Virus genome (UHGV): UHGV-1583900
Direction: 5' to 3' (one strand)
DNA from: a virus
Length of the DNA stretch: 11,972 nucleotides
The notes beneath the pieces were generated by a model. The model worked only from the letters and a program-made list of their open reading frames with translations, made no database searches and had not been told where the DNA came from. This document shows, one piece after another, positions 1-11,972 of the stretch. Numbering within the stretch: position 1 is the first letter of the stretch; each line of letters opens with the position of its first letter. A program made the position numbers and the translations under genes.

Positions 1-76
1 AAAACCGACATGTTGATTTCCTGAAACGGGATATCATCAAAGCCATGAACAAAGCAGCCGCGCTGGATGAACTGAT

Positions 77-643
77 ATGGGCCGCAGTGCGGCGAACAAC
101 ATCACGCAGTCCGGCGGCACGGAGTGGAGCAAGCGTGACAAGTCCACGTATGACCCGACCGACGATATCGAAGCCTACGCGCTGAACGCCAGCGGTGTGG
201 TGAATATCATCGTGTTTGATCCGAAAGGCTGGGCGCTGTTCCGTTCCTTCAAAGCCGTCAAGGAGAAGCTGGATACCCGTCGCGGCTCTCATTCCGAGCT
301 GGAGACAGCGGTGAAAGACCTGGGCAAAGCGGTGTCCTATAAGGGGATGTATGGCGATGTGGCCATCGTCGTGTATTCCGGACAGTACGTGGAAAACGGC
401 GTCAAAAAGAACTTCCTGCCGGACAACACGATGGTGCTGGGGAACACTCAGGCACGCGGTCTGCGCACCTATGGCTGCATTCAGGATGCGGACGCACAGC
501 GCGAAGGTATTAACGCCTCTGCCCGCTACCCGAAAAACTGGGTGACCACCGGCGATCCGGCGCGTGAGTTCACCATGATTCAGTCAGCACCGCTGATGCT
601 GCTGGCTGACCCTGATGAGTTCGTGTCCGTACAACTGGCGTAA
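77..643 (+). CDS. E: Major capsid protein E, C-terminal 188 codons only; 5' part of the gene not readable in this frame
   Basis: Translation ends ...SAPLMLLADPDEFVSVQLA, matching my recollection of the lambda gpE C-terminus over its whole length. The frame is closed upstream by TGA at 68..70 and 14..16, so the expected N-terminal ~150 codons are not encoded in frame. Confidence 0.8.
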   Translation: MGRSAANNITQSGGTEWSKRDKSTYDPTDDIEAYALNASGVVNIIVFDPKGWALFRSFKAVKEKLDTRRGSHSELETAVKDLGKAVSYKGMYGDVAIVVYSGQYVENGVKKNFLPDNTMVLGNTQARGLRTYGCIQDADAQREGINASARYPKNWVTTGDPAREFTMIQSAPLMLLADPDEFVSVQLA

Positions 644-645
644 TC

Positions 646-672
646 ATGGCCCTTCGGGGCCATTTTCTCTCT
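646..672 (+). terminator. Terminator-like hairpin just after E: 7-bp stem ATGGCCC/GGGCCAT with TTCG loop, then a T-rich run
   Basis: Inverted repeat 646..652 / 657..663 with loop 653..656, followed by TTTTCTCTCT. Lies between the E stop (641..643) and the FI ribosome-binding site GGAGGA (675..680). Confidence 0.35.
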
Positions 673-684
673 GTGGAGGAGTCC

Positions 685-1080
685 ATGACGAAAGATGAAC
701 TGATTGCCCGTCTCCGGTCGCTGGGTGAGCAACTGAACCGTGATGTCAGCCTGACGGGGACGAAAGAAGAACTGGCGCTCCGTGTGGCAGAGCTGGAAGA
801 GGAGCTTGATGACACGGATGACGCTGCCGGTCAGGACACATCTGTCAGCCCGGAAAATGCGCTGACCGGACATGAAAATGAGGTGGTATCAGCGCAGCCG
901 GATACCGTGATTGATACGGCTGCTCTGGTCACGGTCGTGGCACTGGTGACGCTGCATACTGATGCACTTCACGCCACGCGGGATGAACCTGTGGCATTTG
1001 TGCTGCCGGGAACGGCGTTTCGTGTCTCTGCCGGTGTGGCAGCCGAAATGACAGAGCGCGGCCTGGCCAGAATGCAATAA
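685..1080 (+). CDS. FI: DNA packaging / head assembly protein FI
   Basis: MTKDELIARLRSLGEQLNRDVSLTG... matches lambda gpFI as I recall it. ATG at 685 is preceded by GGAGGA (675..680). The track ORF from 646 is an upstream in-frame extension that starts inside the hairpin and is unlikely to be used. Confidence 0.85.
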   Translation: MTKDELIARLRSLGEQLNRDVSLTGTKEELALRVAELEEELDDTDDAAGQDTSVSPENALTGHENEVVSAQPDTVIDTAALVTVVALVTLHTDALHATRDEPVAFVLPGTAFRVSAGVAAEMTERGLARMQ

Positions 1081-1091
1081 CGGGAGGCGCT

Positions 1092-1445
1092 GTGGCTGAT
1101 TTCGATAACCTGTTCGATGCTGCCATTGCCCGCGCCGATGAAACGATACGCGGGTACATGGGAACGTCAGCCACCATTACATCCGGTGAGCAGTCAGGTG
1201 CGGTGATACGTGGTGTTTTTGATGACCCTGAAAATATCAGCTATGCCGGACAGGGCGTGCGCGTTGAAGGCTCCAGCCCGTCCCTGTTTGTCCGGACTGA
1301 TGATGCGCGGCAGCTGCGGCGTGGAGACACGCTGACCATCGGTGAGGAAAATTTCTGGGTAGATCGGGTTTCGCCGGATGATGGCGGAAGCTGTCATCTC
1401 TGGCTTGGGCGGGGCGTACCGCCTGCCGTTAACCGTCGCCGCTGA
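1092..1445 (+). CDS. FII: Head-tail joining protein FII
   Basis: MADFDNLFDAAIARADETIRGYMG... 117 aa, matching lambda gpFII. GTG start at 1092 preceded by GGGAGG (1082..1087). Confidence 0.88.
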   Translation: MADFDNLFDAAIARADETIRGYMGTSATITSGEQSGAVIRGVFDDPENISYAGQGVRVEGSSPSLFVRTDDARQLRRGDTLTIGEENFWVDRVSPDDGGSCHLWLGRGVPPAVNRRR

Positions 1446-1456
1446 AAGGGGGATGT

Positions 1457-2035
1457 ATGGCCATAAAAGGTCTTGAGCAGGCCGTTGAAAACCTCAGCCG
1501 TATCAGCAAAACGGCGGTGCCCGGTGCCGCCGCAATGGCCATTAACCGCGTTGCTTCATCCGCGATATCGCAGTAGGCGTCACAGGTTGCCCGTGAGACA
1601 AAGGTACGCCGGAAACTGGTAAAGGAAAGGGCCAGGCTGAAAAGGGCCACGGTCAAAAATCCGCAGGCCAGAATCAGGGTTAACCGGGGGGATTTGCCCG
1701 TAATAAAGCTGGGTAACGCGCGGATTGTCCTGTCCCGACGCAGGCGTCGTAAAAAGGGGCAGCGTTCAGCCCTGAAAGGTGGCGGCAGCGTGCTTGTGGT
1801 GGGAAACCGTCGTATTCCCGGCGCGTTTATTCAGCAACTGAAAAATGGCCGCTGGCATGTCATGCAGCGTGTGGCCGGGAAAAACCGTTACCCCATTGAT
1901 GTGGTGAAAATCCCGATGGCGGTGCCGCTGACCACGGCGTTTAAACAGAATATTGAACGGATACGGCGTGAACGTCTTCCGAAAGAGCTGGGCTATGCGC
2001 TGCAGCATCAACTGAGAATGGTAATAAAGCGATGA
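1457..2035 (+). pseudogene. Z: Tail completion protein Z interrupted by an in-frame amber codon (TAG at 1574..1576, codon 40)
   Basis: ATG 1457 with GGGGGA upstream. Translation MAIKGLEQAVENLSRISKTAVPGAAAMAINRVASSAISQ*ASQVARETKVRRKLVKE...LRMVIKR. The frame is lambda-Z-like on both sides of the TAG with no frameshift; the 1694..2035 track ORF is the 3' part of the same frame. Confidence 0.85.
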
Positions 2036-2427
2036 AACATACTGAACTCCGTGCAGCCGTACTGGATGCACTGGAGAAGCATGACACCGGGGCGACGCTT
2101 TTTGATGGTCGCCCCGCTGTTTTTGATGAGGCGGATTTTCCGGCAATTGCCGTTTATCTCACCGGCGCTGAATACACGGGCGAAGAGCTGGACAGTGATA
2201 CCTGGCAGGCGGAGCTGCATATTGAAGTTTTCCTGCCTGCTCAGGTGCCGGATTCAGAGCTGGATTCGTGGATGGAGTCCCGGATTTATCCGGTGATGAG
2301 CGATATCCCGGCACTGTCAGATTTGATCACCAGTATGGTGGTCAGTGGCTATGACTACCGGCGCGACGATGATGCGGGCCTGTGGAGTTCAGCCGATCTG
2401 ACTTATGTCATTACCTATGAAATGTGA
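2032..2427 (+). CDS. U: Tail tube terminator protein U
   Basis: [45 protein letters not shown]... 131 aa, matching lambda gpU. Start overlaps the Z stop (ATGA at 2032..2035). Confidence 0.9.
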
Positions 2428-2434
2428 GGACGAT

Positions 2435-3175
2435 ATGCCTGTACCAAATCCTGTAATGCCGGTGAAAGGTGCCGGGACCACCCTGTGGGTTTATAAGGGG
2501 AGCGGTGACCCTTATGCGAACCCGCTTTCAGACGTTGACTGGTCGCGTCTGGCAAAAGTTAAAGACCTGACGCCCGGCGAACTGACCGCTGAGTCCTATG
2601 ACGACAGTTATCTCGATGATGAAGATGCGGACTGGACCGCGACCGGACAGGGGCAGAAGTCAGCCGGAGATACCAGCTTCACGCTGGCGTGGATGCCCGG
2701 AGAGCAGGGGCAGCAGGCGCTGCTGGCGTGGTTTAATGAAGGTGATACCCGTGCCTATAAAATCCGCTTCCCGAACGGCACGGTCGATGTGTTCCGTGGC
2801 TGGGTCAGCAGTATCGGTAAGGCGGTGACGGCGAAGGAAGTGATCACCCGCACGGTGAAAGTCACCAACGTGGGACGTCCGTCGATGGCAGAAGATCGCA
2901 GCACGGTAACAGCGGCAACCGGCATGACCGTGACGCCTGCCAGCACTTCGGTGGTGAAAGGGCAGAGCACCACGCTGACCGTGGCATTCCAGCCGGAAGG
3001 CGCAACCGACAAGAGCTTCCGTGCGGTGTCTGCGGATAAAACAAAAGCCACCGTGTCGGTCAGTGGTATGACCATCACCGTGAAAGGCGTTGCTGCAGGC
3101 AAGGTCAACATTCCGGTTGTATCCGGTAATGGTGAACTTGCTGCGGTTGCAGAAATCACTGTCACCGACAGTTAA
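2435..3175 (+). CDS. V: Major tail tube protein V, with C-terminal Ig-like (Big_2-type) domain
   Basis: [42 protein letters not shown]... 246 aa, matching lambda gpV. ATG at 2435 preceded by GAGGA (2426..2430). The track ORF starting at 2405 is a 5' extension into the end of U. Confidence 0.9.
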
Positions 3176-3190
3176 TCCGGAGAGTCAGCG

Positions 3191-3613
3191 ATGTTCCTGA
3201 AAACCGAATCATTTGAACATAACGGCGTGACCGTCACGCTTTCTGAACTGTCAGCCCTGCAGCGTATTGAGCATCTCGCCCTGATGAAACGGCAGGCAGA
3301 ACAGGCGGAGTCAGACAGCAACCGGAAGTTTACTGTGGAAGACGCCATCAGAACCGGTGCTTTTGTGGTGGCTATGTCCCTGTGGCATAACCATCCGCAG
3401 AAGACAAAGCAGCCTTCCATGAATGAAGCCGTTAAACAGATTGAGCAGGAAGTGCTTACCACCTGGCCCACAGAGGCAATTTCTCATGCTGAAAACGTGG
3501 TGTACCGGCTGTCCGGTATGTATGAGTTTGTGGTGAATAATACCCCTGAACAGACAGAGGACGCCGGGCCTGCAGAGCCTGTTTCTGCGGGAAAGTGTTC
3601 GACGGTGAGCTGA
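3191..3613 (+). CDS. G: Tail assembly chaperone G
   Basis: MFLKTESFEHNGVTVTLSELSALQRIEHLALMKRQAEQ... 140 aa, matching lambda gpG. RBS GGAGAG at 3179..3184. Confidence 0.9.
   Translation: MFLKTESFEHNGVTVTLSELSALQRIEHLALMKRQAEQAESDSNRKFTVEDAIRTGAFVVAMSLWHNHPQKTKQPSMNEAVKQIEQEVLTTWPTEAISHAENVVYRLSGMYEFVVNNTPEQTEDAGPAEPVSAGKCSTVS
3589..3595 (+). promoter_or_regulatory. Programmed -1 ribosomal frameshift slippery heptamer G GGA AAG (G to G-T fusion)
   Basis: In the G frame the codons are GCG GGA AAG TGT; the heptamer GGGAAAG sits 6 codons before the G stop. A -1 shift gives GGG AAA GTG TTC GAC, which continues into the T frame. Confidence 0.85.
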
Positions 3614-4029
3614 GTTTTGCCCTGAAACTGGCGCGTGAGATGGGGCGACCCGACTGGCGCGCCATGCTTGCCGGGATGTCATCCACGGAGTATGCCGACT
3701 GGCACCGCTTTTACAGTACCCATTATTTTCATGATGTTCTGCTGGATATGCACTTTTCCGGGCTGACGTACACCGTGCTCAGCCTGTTTTTCAGCGATCC
3801 GGATATGCATCCGCTGGATTTCAGTCTGCTGAACCGGCGCGAGGCTGACGAAGAGCCTGAAGATGATGTGCTGATGCAGAAAGCGGCAGGGCTTGCCGGA
3901 GGCGTCCGCTTTGGCCCGGACGGGAATGAAGTTATCCCCGCTTCCCCGGATGTGGCGGACATGACGGAGGATGACGTAATGCTGATGACAGTATCAGAAG
4001 GGATCGCAGGAGGAGTCCGGTATGGCTGA
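3595..4029 (+). CDS. T: Tail assembly protein T; T-frame segment expressed only as the G-T fusion (3191..3594 joined by -1 frameshift to 3595..4029)
   Basis: T-frame translation VFDGELSFALKLAREMGRPDWRAMLAGMSSTEYADWHRFYSTHYFHDV... matches lambda gpT. No RBS or convincing start of its own; the M in the ORF track is the GTG at 3595 inside the slippery site. Confidence 0.85.
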   Translation: MFDGELSFALKLAREMGRPDWRAMLAGMSSTEYADWHRFYSTHYFHDVLLDMHFSGLTYTVLSLFFSDPDMHPLDFSLLNRREADEEPEDDVLMQKAAGLAGGVRFGPDGNEVIPASPDVADMTEDDVMLMTVSEGIAGGVRYG

Positions 4030-6583
4030 ACCGGTAGGCGATCTGGTCGTTGATTTAAGTCTGGATGCGGCCAGATTTGACGAGCAGATGGCCAGAGTCA
4101 GGCGTCATTTTTCCGGTACGGAAAGTGATGCGAAAAAAACAGCGGCAGTCGTTGAACAGTCGCTGAGCCGACAGGCGCTGGCTGCACAGAAAGCGGGGAT
4201 TTCCGTCGGGCAGTATAAAGCCGCCATGCGTATGCTGCCTGCACAGTTCACCGACGTGGCCACGCAGCTTGCAGGCGGGCAAAGCCCGTGGCTGATCCTG
4301 CTGCAACAGGGGGGTCAGGTTAAGGACTCCTTCGGCGGGATGATCCCCATGTTCAGGGGGCTTGCCGGTGCGATCACCCTGCCGATGGTGGGGGCCACCT
4401 CGCTGGCGGTGGCGACCGGTGCGCTGGCGTATGCCTGGTATCAGGGCAACTCAACCCTGTCCGATTTCAACAAAACGCTGGTCCTTTCCGGCAATCAGGC
4501 GGGACTGACGGCAGATCGTATGCTGGTCCTGTCCAGAGCCGGGCAGGCGGCAGGGCTGACGTTTAACCAGACCAGCGAGTCACTGACGGCGCTGGTGAAT
4601 GCCGGTGTGCGTGGTGGTGAGCAGTTTGAGGCGATCAGCCAGAGTGTGGCGCGTTTCTCCTCTGCATCCGGCGTGGAGGTGGACAAGGTCGCTGAAGCCT
4701 TCGGGAAGCTGACCACAGACCCGACGTCGGGGCTGACGGCGATGGCACGCCAGTTCCATAACGTGACGGCGGAGCAGATTGCGTATGTTGCTCAGTTGCA
4801 GCGTTCCGGCGATGAAGCCGGGGCATTGCAGGCGGCGAACGAGGCCGCAACGAAAGGGTTTGATGACCAGACCCGCCGCCTGAAAGAGAACATGGGCACG
4901 CTGGAGACCTGGGCAGACAGGACAGCACGGGCATTCAAATCCATGTGGGATGCGGTGCTGGATATTGGTCGTCCTGATACCGCGCAGGAGATGCTGATTA
5001 AGGCAGAGGCCGCGTTTAAGAAAGCGGACGATATCTGGAATCTGCGCAAGGATGATTATTTTGTTAACGATGAAGCGCGGGCGCGTTACTGGGATGATCG
5101 TGAAAAGGCCCGTCTTGCGCTTGAAGTCGCCCGAAAGAAGGCTGAGCAGCAGAGTCAACAGGACAAAAATGCGCAGCAGCAGAGCGATACCGAAGCGTCA
5201 CGGCTGAAATATACCGAAGAGGCGCAGAAGGCTTACGAACGGCTGCAGACGCCGCTGGAGAAATATACCGCCCGTCAGGAAGAACTGAACAAGGCACTGA
5301 AAGACGGGAAAATCCTGCAGGCGGATTACAACACGCTGATGGCGGCGGCGAAAAAGGATTATGAAGCGACGCTGAAAAAGCCGAAACAGTCCGGCGTGAA
5401 GGTGTCTGCGGGCGATCGTCAGGAAGACAGTGCTCATGCTGCCCTGCTGACGCTTCAGGCTGAACTCCGGACGCTGGAGAAGCATGCCGGAGCAAATGAG
5501 AAAATCAGCCAGCAGCGCCGGGATTTGTGGAAGGCGGAGAGTCAGTTCGCGGTACTGGAGGAGGCGGCGCAACGTCGCCAGCTGTCCGCACAGGAGAAAT
5601 CCCTGCTGGCGCATAAAGATGAGACGCTGGAGTACAAACGCCAGCTGGCTGCACTTGGCGACAAGGTTACGTATCAGGAGCGCCTGAACGCGCTGGCGCA
5701 GCAGGCGGATAAATTCGCACAGCAGCAACGGGCAAAACGGGCCGCCATTGATGCGAAAAGCCGGGGGCTGACTGACCGGCAGGCAGAACGGGAAGCCACG
5801 GAACAGCGCCTGAAGGAACAGTATGGCGATAATTCGCTGGCGCTGAATAACGTCATGTCAGAGCAGAAAAAGACCTGGGCGGCTGAAGACCTGCTTCGCG
5901 GGAGCTGGATGGCAGGCCTCAGGTCCGGCTGGAGTGAGTGGGAAGAGAGCGCCACGGACAGTATGTCGCAGGTAAAAAGTGCAGCCACGCAGACCTTTGA
6001 TGGTATTGCGCAGAATATGGCGGCGATGCTGACCGGCAGTGAGCAGAACTGGCGCAGCTTCACCCGTTCCGTGCTGTCCATGATGACAGAAATTCTGCTT
6101 AAGCAGGCAATGGTGGGGATTGTCGGGAGTATCGGCAGCGCCATTGGCGGGGCTGTTGGTGGCGGCGCATCCGCGTCAGGCGGTACAGCCATTCAGGCCG
6201 CTGCGGCGAAATTCCATTTTGCAACCGGAGGATTTACGGGAACCGGCGGCAAATATGAGCCAGCGGGGATTGTTCACCGTGGTGAATTTGTCTTCACGAA
6301 GGAGGCAACCAGCCGGATTGGCGTGGGGAATCTTTACCGGCTGATGCGCGGCTATGCCACCGGCGGTTATGTCGGTACACCGGGCAGCATGGCAGACAGC
6401 CGGTCGCAGGCGTCCGGGACGTTTGAGCAGAATAACCATGTGGTGATTAACAACGACGGCACGAACGGTCAGATAGGGCCACAGGCGCTGAAGGCTGTTT
6501 ATGACGTAGCCCGTAAGGCGGCAATGGATGTTGTGACCGGGCAGATGCGTGATGGTGGTCTGTTCTCCGGAGGTGGACGATGA
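4022..6583 (+). CDS. H: Tail tape measure protein H
   Basis: 853 aa, MAEPVGDLVVDLSLDAARFDEQMARVRRHFSGTESDAKK... matching lambda gpH in length and sequence. Start overlaps the end of T (ATGGCTGA). Long coiled-coil-like central region and Gly-rich C-terminal segment. Confidence 0.93.
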   Translation: MAEPVGDLVVDLSLDAARFDEQMARVRRHFSGTESDAKKTAAVVEQSLSRQALAAQKAGISVGQYKAAMRMLPAQFTDVATQLAGGQSPWLILLQQGGQVKDSFGGMIPMFRGLAGAITLPMVGATSLAVATGALAYAWYQGNSTLSDFNKTLVLSGNQAGLTADRMLVLSRAGQAAGLTFNQTSESLTALVNAGVRGGEQFEAISQSVARFSSASGVEVDKVAEAFGKLTTDPTSGLTAMARQFHNVTAEQIAYVAQLQRSGDEAGALQAANEAATKGFDDQTRRLKENMGTLETWADRTARAFKSMWDAVLDIGRPDTAQEMLIKAEAAFKKADDIWNLRKDDYFVNDEARARYWDDREKARLALEVARKKAEQQSQQDKNAQQQSDTEASRLKYTEEAQKAYERLQTPLEKYTARQEELNKALKDGKILQADYNTLMAAAKKDYEATLKKPKQSGVKVSAGDRQEDSAHAALLTLQAELRTLEKHAGANEKISQQRRDLWKAESQFAVLEEAAQRRQLSAQEKSLLAHKDETLEYKRQLAALGDKVTYQERLNALAQQADKFAQQQRAKRAAIDAKSRGLTDRQAEREATEQRLKEQYGDNSLALNNVMSEQKKTWAAEDLLRGSWMAGLRSGWSEWEESATDSMSQVKSAATQTFDGIAQNMAAMLTGSEQNWRSFTRSVLSMMTEILLKQAMVGIVGSIGSAIGGAVGGGASASGGTAIQAAAAKFHFATGGFTGTGGKYEPAGIVHRGEFVFTKEATSRIGVGNLYRLMRGYATGGYVGTPGSMADSRSQASGTFEQNNHVVINNDGTNGQIGPQALKAVYDVARKAAMDVVTGQMRDGGLFSGGGR

Positions 6584-6909
6584 AAACCTTCCGCTGGAAA
6601 GTGAAACCCGGTATGGATGTGGCTTCGGCCCCTTCCGTCAGGAAAGTGCGCTTTGGTGATGGCTATTCTCAGCGAGCGCCTGCCGGGCTGAATGCCAACC
6701 TGAAAACGTACAGCGTGACGCTTTCTGTCCCCCGTGAGGAGGCCACGGTACTGGAGTCGTTTCTGGAAGAGCACGGGGGCTGGAAATCCTTTCTGTGGAC
6801 GCCGCCTTATGAGTGGCGGCAGATAAAGGTGACCTGCGCAAAATGGTCGTCGCGGGTCAGTATGCTGCGTGTTGAGTTCAGCGCAGAGTTTGAACAGGTG
6901 GTGAACTGA
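6580..6909 (+). CDS. M: Tail tip protein M
   Basis: MKTFRWKVKPGMDVASAPSVRKVRFGDGYSQRAPAGLNANLKTYSV... 109 aa, matching lambda gpM. ATGA overlap with the H stop. Confidence 0.9.
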   Translation: MKTFRWKVKPGMDVASAPSVRKVRFGDGYSQRAPAGLNANLKTYSVTLSVPREEATVLESFLEEHGGWKSFLWTPPYEWRQIKVTCAKWSSRVSMLRVEFSAEFEQVVN

Positions 6910-7607
6910 TGCAGGATATCCGGCAGGAAACACTGAATGAATGCACCCGTGCGGAGCAGTCGGCCAGCGTGGTGCTCTGGGAAATCGACCTGACAGAGGT
7001 CGGTGGAGAACGTTATTTTTTCTGTAATGAGCAGAACGAAAAAGGTGAGCCGGTCACCTGGCAGGGGCGACAGTATCAGCCGTATCCCATTCAGGGGAGC
7101 GGTTTTGAACTGAATGGCAAAGGCACCAGTACGCGCCCCACGCTGACGGTTTCTAACCTGTACGGTATGGTCACCGGGATGGCGGAAGATATGCAGAGTC
7201 TGGTCGGCGGAACGGTGGTCCGGCGTAAGGTTTACGCCCGTTTTCTGGATGCGGTGAACTTCGTCAACGGAAACAGTGGCGCCGATCCGGAGCAGGAGGT
7301 GATCAGCCGCTGGCGCATTGAGCAGTGCAGCGAACTGAGCGCGGTGAGTGCCTCTTTTGTACTGTCCACGCCGACGGAAACGGATGGCGCTGTTTTTCCG
7401 GGACGTATCATGCTGGCCAACACCTGCACCTGGACCTATCGCGGTGATGAGTGCGGTTATCACGGTCCGGCGGTCGCGGATGAATATGACCAGCCGACGT
7501 CCGATATCACGAAGGATAAATGCAGCAAATGCCTGAGCGGTTGTAAGTTCCGCAATAACGTCGGCAACTTTGGCGGCTTCCTTTCCATTAACAAACTTTC
7601 GCAGTAA
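6909..7607 (+). CDS. L: Tail tip protein L (Cys-rich C-terminus, Fe-S cluster binding in lambda)
   Basis: MQDIRQETLNECTRAEQSASVVLWEIDLTEVGGERYFFCNEQNEKGEPVTWQGRQYQPY... 232 aa, matching lambda gpL. Start overlaps the M stop by 1 nt (TGATG). Confidence 0.9.
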   Translation: MQDIRQETLNECTRAEQSASVVLWEIDLTEVGGERYFFCNEQNEKGEPVTWQGRQYQPYPIQGSGFELNGKGTSTRPTLTVSNLYGMVTGMAEDMQSLVGGTVVRRKVYARFLDAVNFVNGNSGADPEQEVISRWRIEQCSELSAVSASFVLSTPTETDGAVFPGRIMLANTCTWTYRGDECGYHGPAVADEYDQPTSDITKDKCSKCLSGCKFRNNVGNFGGFLSINKLSQ

Positions 7608-7612
7608 ATCCC

Positions 7613-8356
7613 ATGACACAGACAGAATCAGCGATTCTGGCGCACGCCCGGCGATGTGCGCCAGCGGAGTCGTGCGGCTTCGTGGTAAGCACGCCGGAGG
7701 GGGAAAGATATTTTCCCTGCGTGAATATCTCCGGTGAGCCGGAGGCGTATTTCCGTATGTCGCCGGAAGACTGGCTGCAGGCAGAAATGCAGGGTGAGAT
7801 TGTGGCGCTGGTCCACAGCCACCCCGGTGGTCTGCCCTGGCTGAGTGAGGCCGACCGGCGGCTGCAGGTGCAGAGTGATTTGCCGTGGTGGCTGGTCTGC
7901 CGGGGTGAGATTCATAAATTCCGCTGTGTGCCGCATCTCACCGGGCGGCGCTTTGAGCACGGGGTGACGGACTGTTACACGCTGTTCCGGGACGCTTACC
8001 ATCTGGCGGGAATTGAGATGCCGGATTTTCATCGCGGGGATGACTGGTGGCGTAACGGCCAGAATCTCTATCTGGATAATCTGGAGGCGACGGGGCTGTA
8101 TCAGGTGCCGTTGTCAGCGGCACAGCCGGGCGATGTGCTGCTGTGCTGTTTTGGTTCATCAGTGCCGAATCACGCCGCAATTTACTGCGGCGACGGCGAG
8201 CTGCTGCACCATATTCCTGAACAACTGAGCAAACGAGAGAGGTATACCGACAAATGGCAGCGACGCACACACTCCCTCTGGCGTCACCGGGCATGGCACG
8301 CATCTGCCTTTACGGGGATTTACAACGATTTGGCCGCCGCATCGACCTTCGTGTGA
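7613..8356 (+). CDS. K: Tail tip assembly protein K (JAB/MPN metalloprotease-like domain + NlpC/P60-like domain); classical lambda annotation starts at the internal ATG 7757
   Basis: ORF of 247 codons from ATG 7613, 5 nt after the L stop. JAMM-type motif HSHPGGLPWLSEAD at 7814..7855 with an upstream E-x-CG element (AESCGFVV); downstream Cys/His papain-like residues (VTDCYTLF, NHAAIY). Internal ATG at 7757 preceded by GGAGG gives the 199-aa version. Confidence 0.8.
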   Translation: MTQTESAILAHARRCAPAESCGFVVSTPEGERYFPCVNISGEPEAYFRMSPEDWLQAEMQGEIVALVHSHPGGLPWLSEADRRLQVQSDLPWWLVCRGEIHKFRCVPHLTGRRFEHGVTDCYTLFRDAYHLAGIEMPDFHRGDDWWRNGQNLYLDNLEATGLYQVPLSAAQPGDVLLCCFGSSVPNHAAIYCGDGELLHHIPEQLSKRERYTDKWQRRTHSLWRHRAWHASAFTGIYNDLAAASTFV

Positions 8357-8925
8357 AAACGGGGGCTGAAGCCATCCGGGCACTGGCCACACAGCTCCCG
8401 GCGTTTCGTCAGAAACTGAGCGACGGCTGGTATCAGGTACGGATTGCCGGGCGGGACGTCAGCACGTCCGGGTTAACGGCGCAGTTACATGAGACTCTGC
8501 CTGATGGCGCTGTGATTCATATTGTTCCCAGAGTCGCCGGGGCCAAGTCAGGTGGCGTATTCCAGATTGTCCTGGGGGCTGCCGCCATTGCCGGATCATT
8601 CTTTACCGCCGGAGCCACCCTTGCAGCATGGGGGGCAGCCATTGGGGCCGGTGGTATGACCGGCATCCTGTTTTCTCTCGGTGCCAGTATGGTGCTCGGT
8701 GGTGTGGCGCAGATGCTGGCACCGAAAGCCAGAACTCCCCGTACACAGACAACGGATAACGGCAAACAGAACACCTATTTCTCCTCACTGGATAACATGG
8801 TTGCCCAGGGCAATGTTCTGCCTGTTCTGTACGGGGAAATGCGCGTGGGGTCACGCGTGGTTTCTCAGGAGATCAGCACGGCAGACGAAGGGGACGGTGG
8901 TCAGGTTGTGGTGATTGGTCGCTGA
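8254..8925 (+). CDS. I: Tail tip assembly protein I (ubiquitin-like N-terminal region, hydrophobic Gly/Ala-rich central segment)
   Basis: MAATHTLPLASPGMARICLYGDLQRFGRRIDLRVKTGAEAIRALATQLPAFRQKL... 223 aa, matching lambda gpI. Overlaps the last 103 nt of K in a different frame. Confidence 0.9.
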   Translation: MAATHTLPLASPGMARICLYGDLQRFGRRIDLRVKTGAEAIRALATQLPAFRQKLSDGWYQVRIAGRDVSTSGLTAQLHETLPDGAVIHIVPRVAGAKSGGVFQIVLGAAAIAGSFFTAGATLAAWGAAIGAGGMTGILFSLGASMVLGGVAQMLAPKARTPRTQTTDNGKQNTYFSSLDNMVAQGNVLPVLYGEMRVGSRVVSQEISTADEGDGGQVVVIGR

Positions 8926-8943
8926 TGCAAAATGTTTTATGTG

Positions 8944-8970
8944 AAACCGCCTGCGGGCGGTTTTGTCGTT
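8944..8970 (+). terminator. Terminator-like hairpin between I and J: 8-bp stem AAACCGCC/GGCGGTTT, TGCG loop, T-rich tail
   Basis: Perfect inverted repeat 8944..8951 / 8956..8963 with 4-nt loop, followed by TTTTGTCGTTT. Sits in the 60-nt I-J intergenic spacer. Confidence 0.35.
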
Positions 8971-8985
8971 TATGGAGCGTGAGGA

Positions 8986-11972
8986 ATGGGTAAAGGAAGC
9001 AGTAAGGGGCATACCCCGCGCGAAGCGAAGGACAACCTGAAGTCCACGCAGTTGCTGAGTGTGATCGATGCCATCAGCGAAGGGCCGATTGAAGGTCCGG
9101 TGGATGGATTAAAAAGCGTGCTGCTGAACAGTACGCCGGTGCTGGACAGTGAGGGGAATACCAACATCTCCGGTGTCACGGTGGTGTTCCGGGCAGGTGA
9201 GCAGGAGCAGAGTCCGCCGGAGGGATTTGAATCCTCCGGCTCCGAGACGGTGCTGGGTACGGAAGTGAAATATGACACGCCGATCACCCGCACCATCACG
9301 TCGGCAAACATCGACCGTCTGCGCTTTACCTTCGGTGTGCAGGCACTGGTGGAAACCACCTCAAAGGGGGACCGGAATCCGTCGGAAGTCCGCCTGCTGG
9401 TTCAGATACAGCGTAATGGTGGCTGGGTGACGGAAAAAGACATCACCATTAAGGGCAAAACCACCTCGCAGTATCTGGCCTCGGTGGTGGTGGATAACCT
9501 GCCGCCGCGCCCGTTTAATATCCGGATGCGCAGGATGACGCCGGACAGCACCACAGACCAGCTGCAGAACAAAACGCTCTGGTCGTCATACACCGAAATC
9601 ATCGATGTGAAACAGTGCTACCCGAACACGGCACTGGTCGGCGTGCAGGTGGACTCGGAACAGTTCGGCAGCCAGCAGGTGAGCCGTAATTATCATCTTC
9701 GCGGGCGCATTCTGCAGGTGCCGTCGAACTATAACCCGCAGACGCGGCAATACAGCGGTATCTGGGACGGAACGTTTAAGCCAGCATACAGCAACAACAT
9801 GGCCTGGTGTCTGTGGGATATGCTGACCCATCCGCGCTACGGCATGGGGAAACGTCTTGGTGCGGCGGATGTGGACAAATGGGCGCTGTATGTCATCGGC
9901 CAGTACTGCGACCAGTCAGTGCCGGACGGCTTTGGCGGCACGGAGCCGCGCATCACCTGTAATGCGTACCTGACCACACAGCGCAAGGCGTGGGATGTGC
10001 TCAGTGATTTCTGCTCGGCGATGCGCTGTATGCCGGTATGGAACGGGCAGACGCTGACGTTCGTGCAGGACCGACCGTCGGATAAGGTGTGGACCTATAA
10101 CCGCAGTAATGTGGTGATGCCGGATGATGGCGCGCCGTTCCGCTACAGCTTCAGCGCCCTGAAGGACCGCCATAATGCCGTTGAGGTGAACTGGATTGAC
10201 CCGAACAACGGCTGGGAGACGGCGACAGAGCTTGTTGAAGATACGCAGGCCATTGCCCGTTACGGTCGTAACGTCACGAAGATGGATGCCTTTGGCTGTA
10301 CCAGCCGGGGGCAGGCGCACCGCGCCGGGCTGTGGCTGATTAAAACGGAACTGCTGGAAACGCAGACCGTGGACTTCAGCGTGGGTGCGGAAGGGCTTCG
10401 CCATGTGCCGGGCGATGTCATTGAAATCTGCGATGATGACTATGCGGGGATCAGCACCGGCGGGCGCGTGCTGGCGGTGAACAGCCAGACCCGGACGCTG
10501 ACGCTCGACCGTGAAATCACGCTGCCATCCTCCGGTACCACGCTGATAAGCCTGGTTGACGGAAGTGGCAATCCGGTCAGCGTGGAGGTCCAGTCCGTCA
10601 CCGACGGCGTGAAGGTAAAAGTGAGCCGTGTTCCTGACGGCGTTGCCGGATACAGCGTATGGGGGCTGAAGCTGCCGACGCTGCGCCAGCGCCTGTTCCG
10701 CTGCGTGAGTATCCGTGAGAACGACGACGGCACGTATGCCATCACCGCCGTGCAGCATGTACCGGAAAAAGAAGCCATCGTGGATAACGGGGCGCACTTT
10801 GACGGCGACCAGAGCGGCACGGTGAATGGTGTCACGCCGCCAGCGGTGCAGCACCTGACTGCCGAAGTCACCGCAGACAGCGGGGAATATCAGGTGCTGG
10901 CGCGCTGGGACACGCCGAAGGTGGTGAAGGGCGTGAGTTTCATGCTTCGCCTGACCGTGGCAGCGGATGACGGCAGTGAGCGGCTGGTCAGCACGGCCCG
11001 GACGACGGAAACCACTTACCGCTTCACACAACTGGCTCTGGGGAACTACAGGCTGACAGTCCGGGCAGTAAATGCGTGGGGGCAGCAGGGCGATCCGGCG
11101 TCGGTATCGTTCCGGATTGCCGCACCGGCAGCGCCGTCGCGGATTGAGCTGACGCCGGGCTATTTTCAGATAACCGCCACGCCGCATCTTGCGGTTTATG
11201 ACCCGACGGTACAGTTTGAGTTCTGGTTCTCGGAAAAGCGGATTGCGGATATCAGGCAGGTTGAAACCACAGCCCGCTATCTTGGCACGGCGCTGTACTG
11301 GATAGCCGCCAGTATCAATATCAAACCGGGCCATGATTATTACTTTTATATCCGCAGTGTGAACACCGTTGGCAAATCGGCATTCGTGGAGGCTGTCGGT
11401 CAGCCGAGTGATGATGCATCAGGCTATCTGGATTTTTTCAAAGGCGAGATAGGGAAAACCCATCTGGCTCAGGAGCTGTGGACGCAGATTGATAACGGTC
11501 AGCTTGCGCCTGACCTGACTGAAATCAGGACGTCCATAACGGATGTCAGCAATGAAATCACACAGACCGTCAATAAGAAACTGGAAGACCAGAGTGCAGC
11601 GATCCAGCAGATACAGAAGGTTCAGGTTGATACAAATAATAACCTGAACAGCATGTGGGCAGTGAAGCTGCAGCAGATGCAGGACGGACGCCTTTATATT
11701 GCGGGTATCGGTGCCGGTATTGAGAACACCCCTGACGGCATGCAGAGTCAGGTGCTGCTGGCGGCGGACAGGATTGCGATGATTAATCCTGCAAATGGCA
11801 ACACAAAACCGATGTTTGTTGGTCAGGGTGATCAGATATTCATGAATGAAGTGTTCCTGAAATATCTGACGGCTCCCACCATTACCAGCGGCGGTAATCC
11901 TCCGGCATTTTCCCTGACACCGGACGGGCGGCTGACGGCGAAAAATGCTGATATCAGCGGTAACGTGAATGC
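8986..11972 (+). CDS. J: Central tail fiber / host specificity protein J, N-terminal ~995 codons (runs off the right edge of the window)
   Basis: ATG 8986 preceded by GAGGAA. Translation [54 protein letters not shown]... matches lambda gpJ. Frame read codon by codon to 11972 with no stop; absent from the ORF track only because it is open-ended. Confidence 0.92.

Follow-up and report, generated by a model that had tools for sequence, protein, structure and literature searches.

Why does the major capsid gene E of a lambda-like phage lose its reading frame at the left end of the sequence UHGV-1583900? The window, by which we mean the whole stretch of 11,972 nt analysed here, was found by exact-protein look-up to be the entire contig ENA ERZ507920 NODE_2416_length_11972_cov_3.709962, a SPAdes-style metagenome assembly product of 11,972 nt with a k-mer coverage of 3.7, which contains phage late genes only. 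The frame encoding the E C-terminus starts at an ATG at 77, ends with the stop codon at 641..643, and is closed upstream by TGA at 68..70 and at 14..16 (reading ...SSRAG*TDMGRSAANNITQSGG...), as the initial annotation had noticed and as the frame translation bears out. A second frame, with codons from position 3, is indeed open from the window start, where it reads NRHVDFLKRDIIKAMNKAAALDELIWAAV...; its 60 codons end at 182, before a TGA at 183..185, and not at about 215 as had been estimated. The initial annotation had suspected a frameshift or a junction inside E, making E a pseudogene, and had proposed that the point at which identity to E is lost be located by BLAST.

That comparison places the start of the E match at 74 and the end of a match to a different gene, nu1, at 77. 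In local BLAST alignments, positions 1..77 are 100% identical to lambda (J02459) 621..697, inside the annotated nu1 coding sequence (191..736), and a search against phage genomes returned 100% matches to 1..76 in 76 of 91 phage records. On the plus strand these 77 nt hold the end of codon 144 and codons 145-169 of nu1 (NRHVDFLKRDIIKAMNKAAALDELI), and their translation corresponds to lambda Nu1 residues 145-169, which accounts for the earlier impression that the frame from position 3 does not look like lambda E. To the right, 74..643 corresponds to lambda 6591..7160 with ~98% nucleotide identity (the E coding sequence being lambda 6135..7160), and the match continues as 74..11482 against lambda 6591..18002 at 97.3% and as 74..11972 against positions 8971..20869 of an intact prophage relative (L013) at 97-98%. 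The E remnant itself is 97-99% identical to E of lambda and of E. coli prophages.

The sequence common to both parents at the joint is GATA only (74..77, plus strand; lambda 694-697 in nu1 and 6591-6594 in E, from the alignment and the BLAST overlap), with the crossover within it or at its edge. GATA is surrounded by a gapped, imperfect 11-of-16 match, read off a three-way alignment, and the chance of at least 4 nt of microhomology at a random joint is 0.016. At the joint, lambda nt 697 (Nu1 codon 169) meets lambda nt 6594/6595 (E codon 153/154); codon 154 of E is the ATG at 77, and codon 153 (GAT, 74..76) lies inside the microhomology. What is lost is lambda 698..6594, or equivalently 694..6590, amounting to 5,897 bp, and no bases were added at the joint. 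In intact prophages of complete E. coli genomes the same two pieces are collinear and on the same strand, together spanning 17,869 bp as against 11,972 bp in the window. The joint thus shows the features of a microhomology-mediated deletion, namely collinear flanks in the same orientation, nothing inserted, and a few identical bases at the crossover. An insertion element or other foreign DNA in E was rejected, both flanks being collinear and from one phage type.

Read from the alignments, then, the event is a 5.9-kb deletion that fuses the small-terminase gene nu1 to the middle of E and leaves E without its first 153 codons. Of the two alternatives first considered, the junction stands and the frameshift does not. 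Absent from the window are the Nu1 C-terminus, A, W, B, C/Nu3, D and E codons 1-153. On the left side the last 12 Nu1 codons are missing, and after I169 the frame reads WAAVRR... in the window versus PGLLSEYIEQSG* in lambda (residues 170-181 lost); the resulting chimeric frame (3..185, plus strand) comprises Nu1 codons 145-169, then 35 out-of-frame codons in E (WAAVRRTTSRSPAARSGASVTSPRMTRPTISKPTR), and the TGA at 183..185. Residues 1-143 of Nu1 lie beyond the left end of the contig, and as a member of the Nu1 family (PF07471) the remnant shows sequence identity over residues 145-169 and lacks an intact C-terminus. On the right side, 77..643 (plus strand) carries E codons 154-341 and the stop, encoding 188 aa that match PF03864 (Phage_cap_E) and align to lambda E residues 154-341. 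A complete frame of ~341 codons with its own start is missing from E, of which only codons 153/154-341 are present with nu1 DNA upstream. As proposed earlier, E is therefore a pseudogene, of which the last 188 codons are all that remains after the 5,897-bp deletion, in a fragment without native start or ribosome-binding context. For annotation purposes, 77..643 should be described as a 5'-truncated E pseudogene beside a 3'-truncated nu1, and not as a frameshifted capsid gene.

The consequences for the element would be severe. The deletion would have removed the gpA-binding C-terminus of Nu1, the large terminase A, W, the portal protein B, the protease/scaffold C/Nu3 and the decoration protein D. 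Without gpA, portal, protease/scaffold, gpD and full-length gpE, lambda neither cuts cos nor builds heads. Since terminase, portal, scaffold, D and the 5' part of E are gone, the element cannot cut cos, build heads or package DNA, and is best handled in annotation as packaging-deficient. Genes required to make particles have thus been lost (A, W, B, C/Nu3, D, E codons 1-153) or inactivated (Z, see below), as expected of a defective prophage. A defective prophage with its terminase and head genes deleted and a private amber in Z, as had been suggested, is likely what the window represents.

The remainder of the contig is well preserved. FI (685..1080) and FII (1092..1445), both on the plus strand, are intact according to gene calls and Pfam matches on an identical contig (L003), without internal stops. 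The tail gene Z (1457..2035, plus strand) carries an amber codon at 1574..1576, and 2032..11972 is collinear with intact prophages at 97-98% identity by BLAST. Within this last interval, on the plus strand, lie the intact tail genes U, V, G, T, H, M, L, K and I, followed by the first 995 codons of J, which is open up to 11972 and runs past the contig end. The K frame (7613-8356) has 247 codons with JAB and NlpC/P60 domains, where the original lambda record has 199 codons annotated. A 472-codon open frame at 9916-11334 on the minus strand, antisense to J, is most likely spurious, J itself being intact on the plus strand.

The amber changes Z codon 40 from TCG (Ser) in lambda to TAG; none of 18 panel loci and none of 5,426 complete E. 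coli genomes has this change. It is the second inactivating lesion on the contig and would further impair tails. Relative to the panel, 22 of the 11,972 bases are private, and the 21 that can be assigned to codons divide into 13 synonymous and 8 non-synonymous changes. With so few private bases, and 13 of 21 synonymous, nothing is unusual about the quality of the contig, and any inactivation would be recent. The private substitutions (13/21 synonymous) give no sign of a long period of relaxed selection and are uninformative in this respect. Five of the 22, four of them synonymous, are clustered in a stretch of 31 nt (6478-6508) towards the 3' end of H, the tape-measure gene, which suggests a short recombination patch from an unsampled allele.

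We then looked for this exact junction elsewhere. BLAST found it as a contiguous match neither in the 5,426 complete E. coli genomes nor in the phage collection, and 44-mer and 31-mer searches did not find it in one genome per prokaryotic species, in JGI/ENA metagenome contigs or in IMG/VR; the Nu1/E fusion peptide was likewise absent among 5.8 billion protein clusters. With the Z amber as lineage marker no relatives reaching further upstream were found: the contigs retrieved through 39-aa and 81-aa Z fragments proved to be truncated at a contig end or to be frameshifted assemblies, and at codon 40 all of them have TCG or TCT. The deletion itself is ordinary prophage decay, and this exact junction is previously unseen.

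What the fusion-peptide search did bring up were numerous short E. coli proteins in which Nu1 breaks off at exactly the residue where it ends in the window and gives way to different tails. Thirty-five of 57 non-native clusters, with ~25 distinct tails, break right after ...KAAALDELI, versus 1-5 at each neighbouring codon. The tails that were mapped lie, mostly out of frame, in A, B, FII, Z, L, J, stf, tfa and lom; nearly all have the same orientation, so they represent deletions with one fixed left end and variable right ends. In 13 of 16 mapped partners the sequence leading up to the joint ends in ..TA, so that 2-4 nt match GATA, and across these deletions the microhomology is confined to the left of the joint. 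At the joint, GAACTGATA is followed by CCGGGG in lambda, by TGGGCC in the window, by ACCGCG (Z) in L117 and by TCAGAAG (tfa) in L118-L121. These deletions are not assembly noise: they occur in closed genomes and in a 125-kb scaffold. Specifically, Nu1-697 joined to Z-8063 is contiguous in four complete E. coli genomes (B4103-1, L3452210II, MB06101 and HKUOPY1), and Nu1-697 joined to tfa-22290 (L118-L121) lies inside the 125-kb scaffold, beside bio genes; Nu1 joined to J-17306 is seen in IMG/VR (L221/L224). Breaks at Nu1-697/699 were located at L117:103-140 and L118:6042-6075, and in L136, L188, L208, L221, L224 and L228. These deletions share with the window the identical left breakpoint, the orientation, 2-4 nt of microhomology and the loss of downstream late genes, but each has its own right breakpoint, and E-6595 was seen paired with Nu1-697 in the window alone.

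In an unbiased test we took 120 IMG/VR loci with an anchor at lambda 650-679 and scored the departure from lambda over the next 470 nt. Breaks were present in 10 of the 120, at 697 (four loci, three partners), 699 (two loci, two partners), 720, 880, 956 and 1018; six of the ten therefore fall in a 3-nt interval that had been specified beforehand (binomial probability ~1e-11). Among 123 loci anchored in A and looking left, there was no mirror-image break at 698-700, and the nu1 hotspot is therefore one-sided. The left breakpoint of the window is thus a recurrent, base-precise, one-sided deletion hotspot in lambda-like prophages, which we regard as mildly interesting; a limited literature search found no paper on a recurrent nu1 breakpoint, an absence that is no proof of novelty.

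Two side observations concern loci met in this survey. L117:1-6205 (GCA_050110735.1, JBNIUE010000127.1) is a scrambled lambda-like remnant with the order Nu1-697, Z 8063-8323, J inverted (18292-15670), T..Z inverted (10523-8318), 19842..., and breakpoints near lambda 8318-8324 recur in L117 and in L123. A protein labelled Staphylococcus aureus (P0049) consists of a Nextera adapter-derived peptide (..GDVYKRQ) fused to the Nu1 allele of lambda proper, which indicates contamination of a public S. aureus assembly with lambda DNA and adapter.

The right breakpoint (..TA followed by TGGGCCGCAGTG; TA/TGGGCC at lambda 6594/6595, positions 77-79 of the window) recurs in three further junctions, each with another partner on the left. 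In one, on a 126-kb contig, this partner is portal B-3027; in the second, on a 75-kb contig, it is a divergent small terminase; in the third it is an antiterminator Q gene. The 126- and 75-kb contigs are isolate contigs. The positions recorded for this breakpoint are L123:5191, L124:5295, L125:661 and L126:432. In the unbiased sample of 118 IMG/VR loci, none of 13 breaks fell at E-6594/6595, and its standing as a general hotspot is weak or unconfirmed.

How might such a joint arise? We propose that the deletion occurred in vivo by microhomology-mediated illegitimate joining at GATA, whereby a 3' end at about nt 697-699, left by a break or a replication stall, would pair with a downstream ..TA. 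More generally, a 3' end at ...GATA(CC) may arise repeatedly and pair with ..TA further downstream, with deletion of the intervening DNA; copy-choice after a stall, or end-joining in which the left end is preserved and the right side resected, are possible routes. Searches for a local cause gave little. Folding of the DNA around lambda 697 and 6594 gave structures no more stable than those of shuffled sequences (z +0.7 to -1.6), and no canonical Chi is present in lambda, in the window or in three relatives, the nearest candidate being a 2-mismatch GCTGGATG at lambda 682-689, 8 nt upstream of the breakpoint. A comparison with the left nick of cosN ranks nicks after 700 and after 6596 among the top ~1% of positions for similarity, a weak and post hoc signal. 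It is conceivable, and we put it forward tentatively, that nt 697-699 (..GAACTGATA/CC/GGGG..) mark a site-specific break or a persistent 3' end that can pair with any downstream ..TA; candidate causes would then be nicking by phage terminase at the weakly cosN-like site, or a specific replication or repair intermediate. If so, the Nu1/E joint would be one product of a recurrent, semi-programmed route that 'grounds' prophages, which would keep lysis functions, cos-nu1 and often the tail genes, and a defined break as the cause would make the loss of packaging and head genes from lambdoid prophages accessible to experiment.

The position of the joint on the contig raises the question of an artefact. 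The Nu1 part is exactly 77 nt long, and 77 is a standard SPAdes k; in a de Bruijn graph, a k-mer with two continuations gives a contig that begins exactly k bases before the divergence. A start 77 nt before the joint therefore implies a branching node at k=77, at which another Nu1 copy in the sample would continue normally. The same contig-start geometry is seen in other assemblies, where partial proteins with junctions at the same Nu1 site start 25, 33, 42 or 47 codons upstream, matching k = 77, 99, 127 and 141. An assembler misjoin through a repeated k-mer (at least 21 nt) was rejected: the flanks share only 4 nt, so the graph was not misjoined and the junction was present in at least one sequenced fragment. 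How a misjoin of that kind looks can be seen in L004 (ERZ28618354 scaffold_4666), which is clearly a k-mer assembly chimera. There, foreign DNA is attached to this E allele no more than 13 nt from the same ATG, and the called gene product is again the 188-aa one, but L004:1-260 is unrelated low-GC DNA, with a gene of a common human-gut bacterium present in 82 other contigs, and it is joined through a 21-nt exact identity (TGGATATGGGCCGCAGTGCGG), whereas the flanks of the window share 4 nt, come from one phage and are collinear. Near contig ends, k-mer chimeras can be told from true junctions by comparing two lengths with the k of the assembler, that of the shared sequence and that from the joint to the end.

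The existence of a chimeric metagenome contig at the very same spot nevertheless lends some colour to another possibility, namely that the prophage is intact in the sample and a single template-switched library fragment joined Nu1 to E, which the assembler kept at the end of a contig that would otherwise have stopped at a coverage gap inside E. At a coverage of 3.7x, with the joint exactly 77 nt from the end, one fragment could survive graph cleaning; the junction is unique among all collections searched, and polymerase template switching favours microhomology just as deletion does. A random joint, however, is not expected to fall on Nu1-697, which is used by in vivo deletions in closed genomes and in contigs of >100 kb, nor on an E breakpoint common to three other junctions. 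The contig also passes straight through the E side with no competing E 5' path attached to this allele, and 4 nt of microhomology is rare in blunt ligation chimeras (p = 0.016). We consider such a chimera improbable. Less probable still is a real deletion carried by replicating or packaged phage DNA, that is, a defective variant propagated with a helper and not an integrated, decaying prophage. The 5.9-kb loss (12%) would keep the genome within the packageable range of lambda, the contig start implies a second, normally continuing Nu1 copy in the same sample, and the private substitutions show a history of purifying selection; yet nothing on the contig points to the sample type or to its own ends, the Z amber speaks against fully active particles, and all other placeable deletions with the same left breakpoint lie in bacterial chromosomes. 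As for a single-base indel in an otherwise complete E, or a mosaic E with a divergent N-terminal half, inserting one G after 73 does fuse both frames on paper (...ALDELDMGRS...), but the upstream 77 nt are nu1 621..697 at 100%, encode Nu1 residues 145-169 and bear no similarity to E codons 128-153. Since the upstream frame is Nu1 and not a divergent E, no indel correction can restore the capsid gene; the corrected full-length E that the initial annotation had named as the outcome that would overturn it is excluded, and both versions of this reading are refuted, with a probability close to nil.

Chance would hardly place a chimeric joint, to the base, on a recurrent breakpoint, and together with the collinearity on one strand, the microhomology, the unbroken run of the contig through the E side and the Z amber this makes a real deletion the best explanation. 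We therefore favour, with a probability of about 85%, a real microhomology-mediated deletion in a defective prophage, and the window is best explained as belonging to a lambda-like E. coli prophage, or to what remains of one, and as covering the left end of its late region.

Other rearrangements of the same region were seen among the relatives. An island is inserted in E at lambda ~6370, with the conserved end ..TTGACTCATGT, in 11 of 118 IMG/VR loci (L249, L257, L272, L286, L298, L299, L301, L308, L311, L312 and L322), and further at L014:4659-8420 and L026:4123-8089. It lies directly upstream of a truncated E and a full tail gene set, and its cargo comprises a D5_N primase, SSB, an E-like capsid protein of its own (346 aa), AlpA, a decoration protein and a defence gene that varies between TIR_2 and AF_1680; this mobile island looks like a capsid-forming satellite of the PICI type. 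A recurrent boundary at lambda 794-799, in the N-terminus of A, has ..GAAAAGACC(G/A)TTGCCAATGACC in place of nu1 and the A start in 7 of 123 loci (IMG/VR L333, L338, L340-L342, L344 and L345), and is probably a mosaic module boundary in the N-terminus of the large terminase.

Finally, the window can be compared with known systems. With lambda (J02459) it shares the gene order FI-FII-Z-U-V-G-T-H-M-L-K-I-J after E, while lambda 698..6594 and the Ser40 codon of Z are missing from it; at 97.3% identity overall it is a natural relative and not laboratory lambda. To our knowledge, a complete tail-gene set such as that kept in the window is not retained in the K-12 cryptic prophages. A parallel in architecture comes from E. 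coli MEI1O2-23 (NZ_CM149577), in which A-904 is joined to E-6317, again inside E, through 3 nt of microhomology and with loss of packaging and head genes; its breakpoints differ, lying in A and at E codon 61, and the junction occurs in 1 of 5,426 genomes. E. coli SCZE5 (NZ_CP051222) and its relatives have likewise lost the genes between terminase and E, leaving nu1'/A' remnants, but there E is intact and the break is inside A rather than Nu1. In the closed genomes of both MEI1O2-23 and SCZE5 the terminase-to-capsid remnants are annotated as pseudogenes (PGAP). DLP12 of K-12 keeps nu1 (nohD) and part of A (PMC3945230), and, like defective lambdoid prophages of this type, the window has kept the cos-proximal nu1 and lost morphogenesis genes to deletion, a pattern typical of prophage decay.
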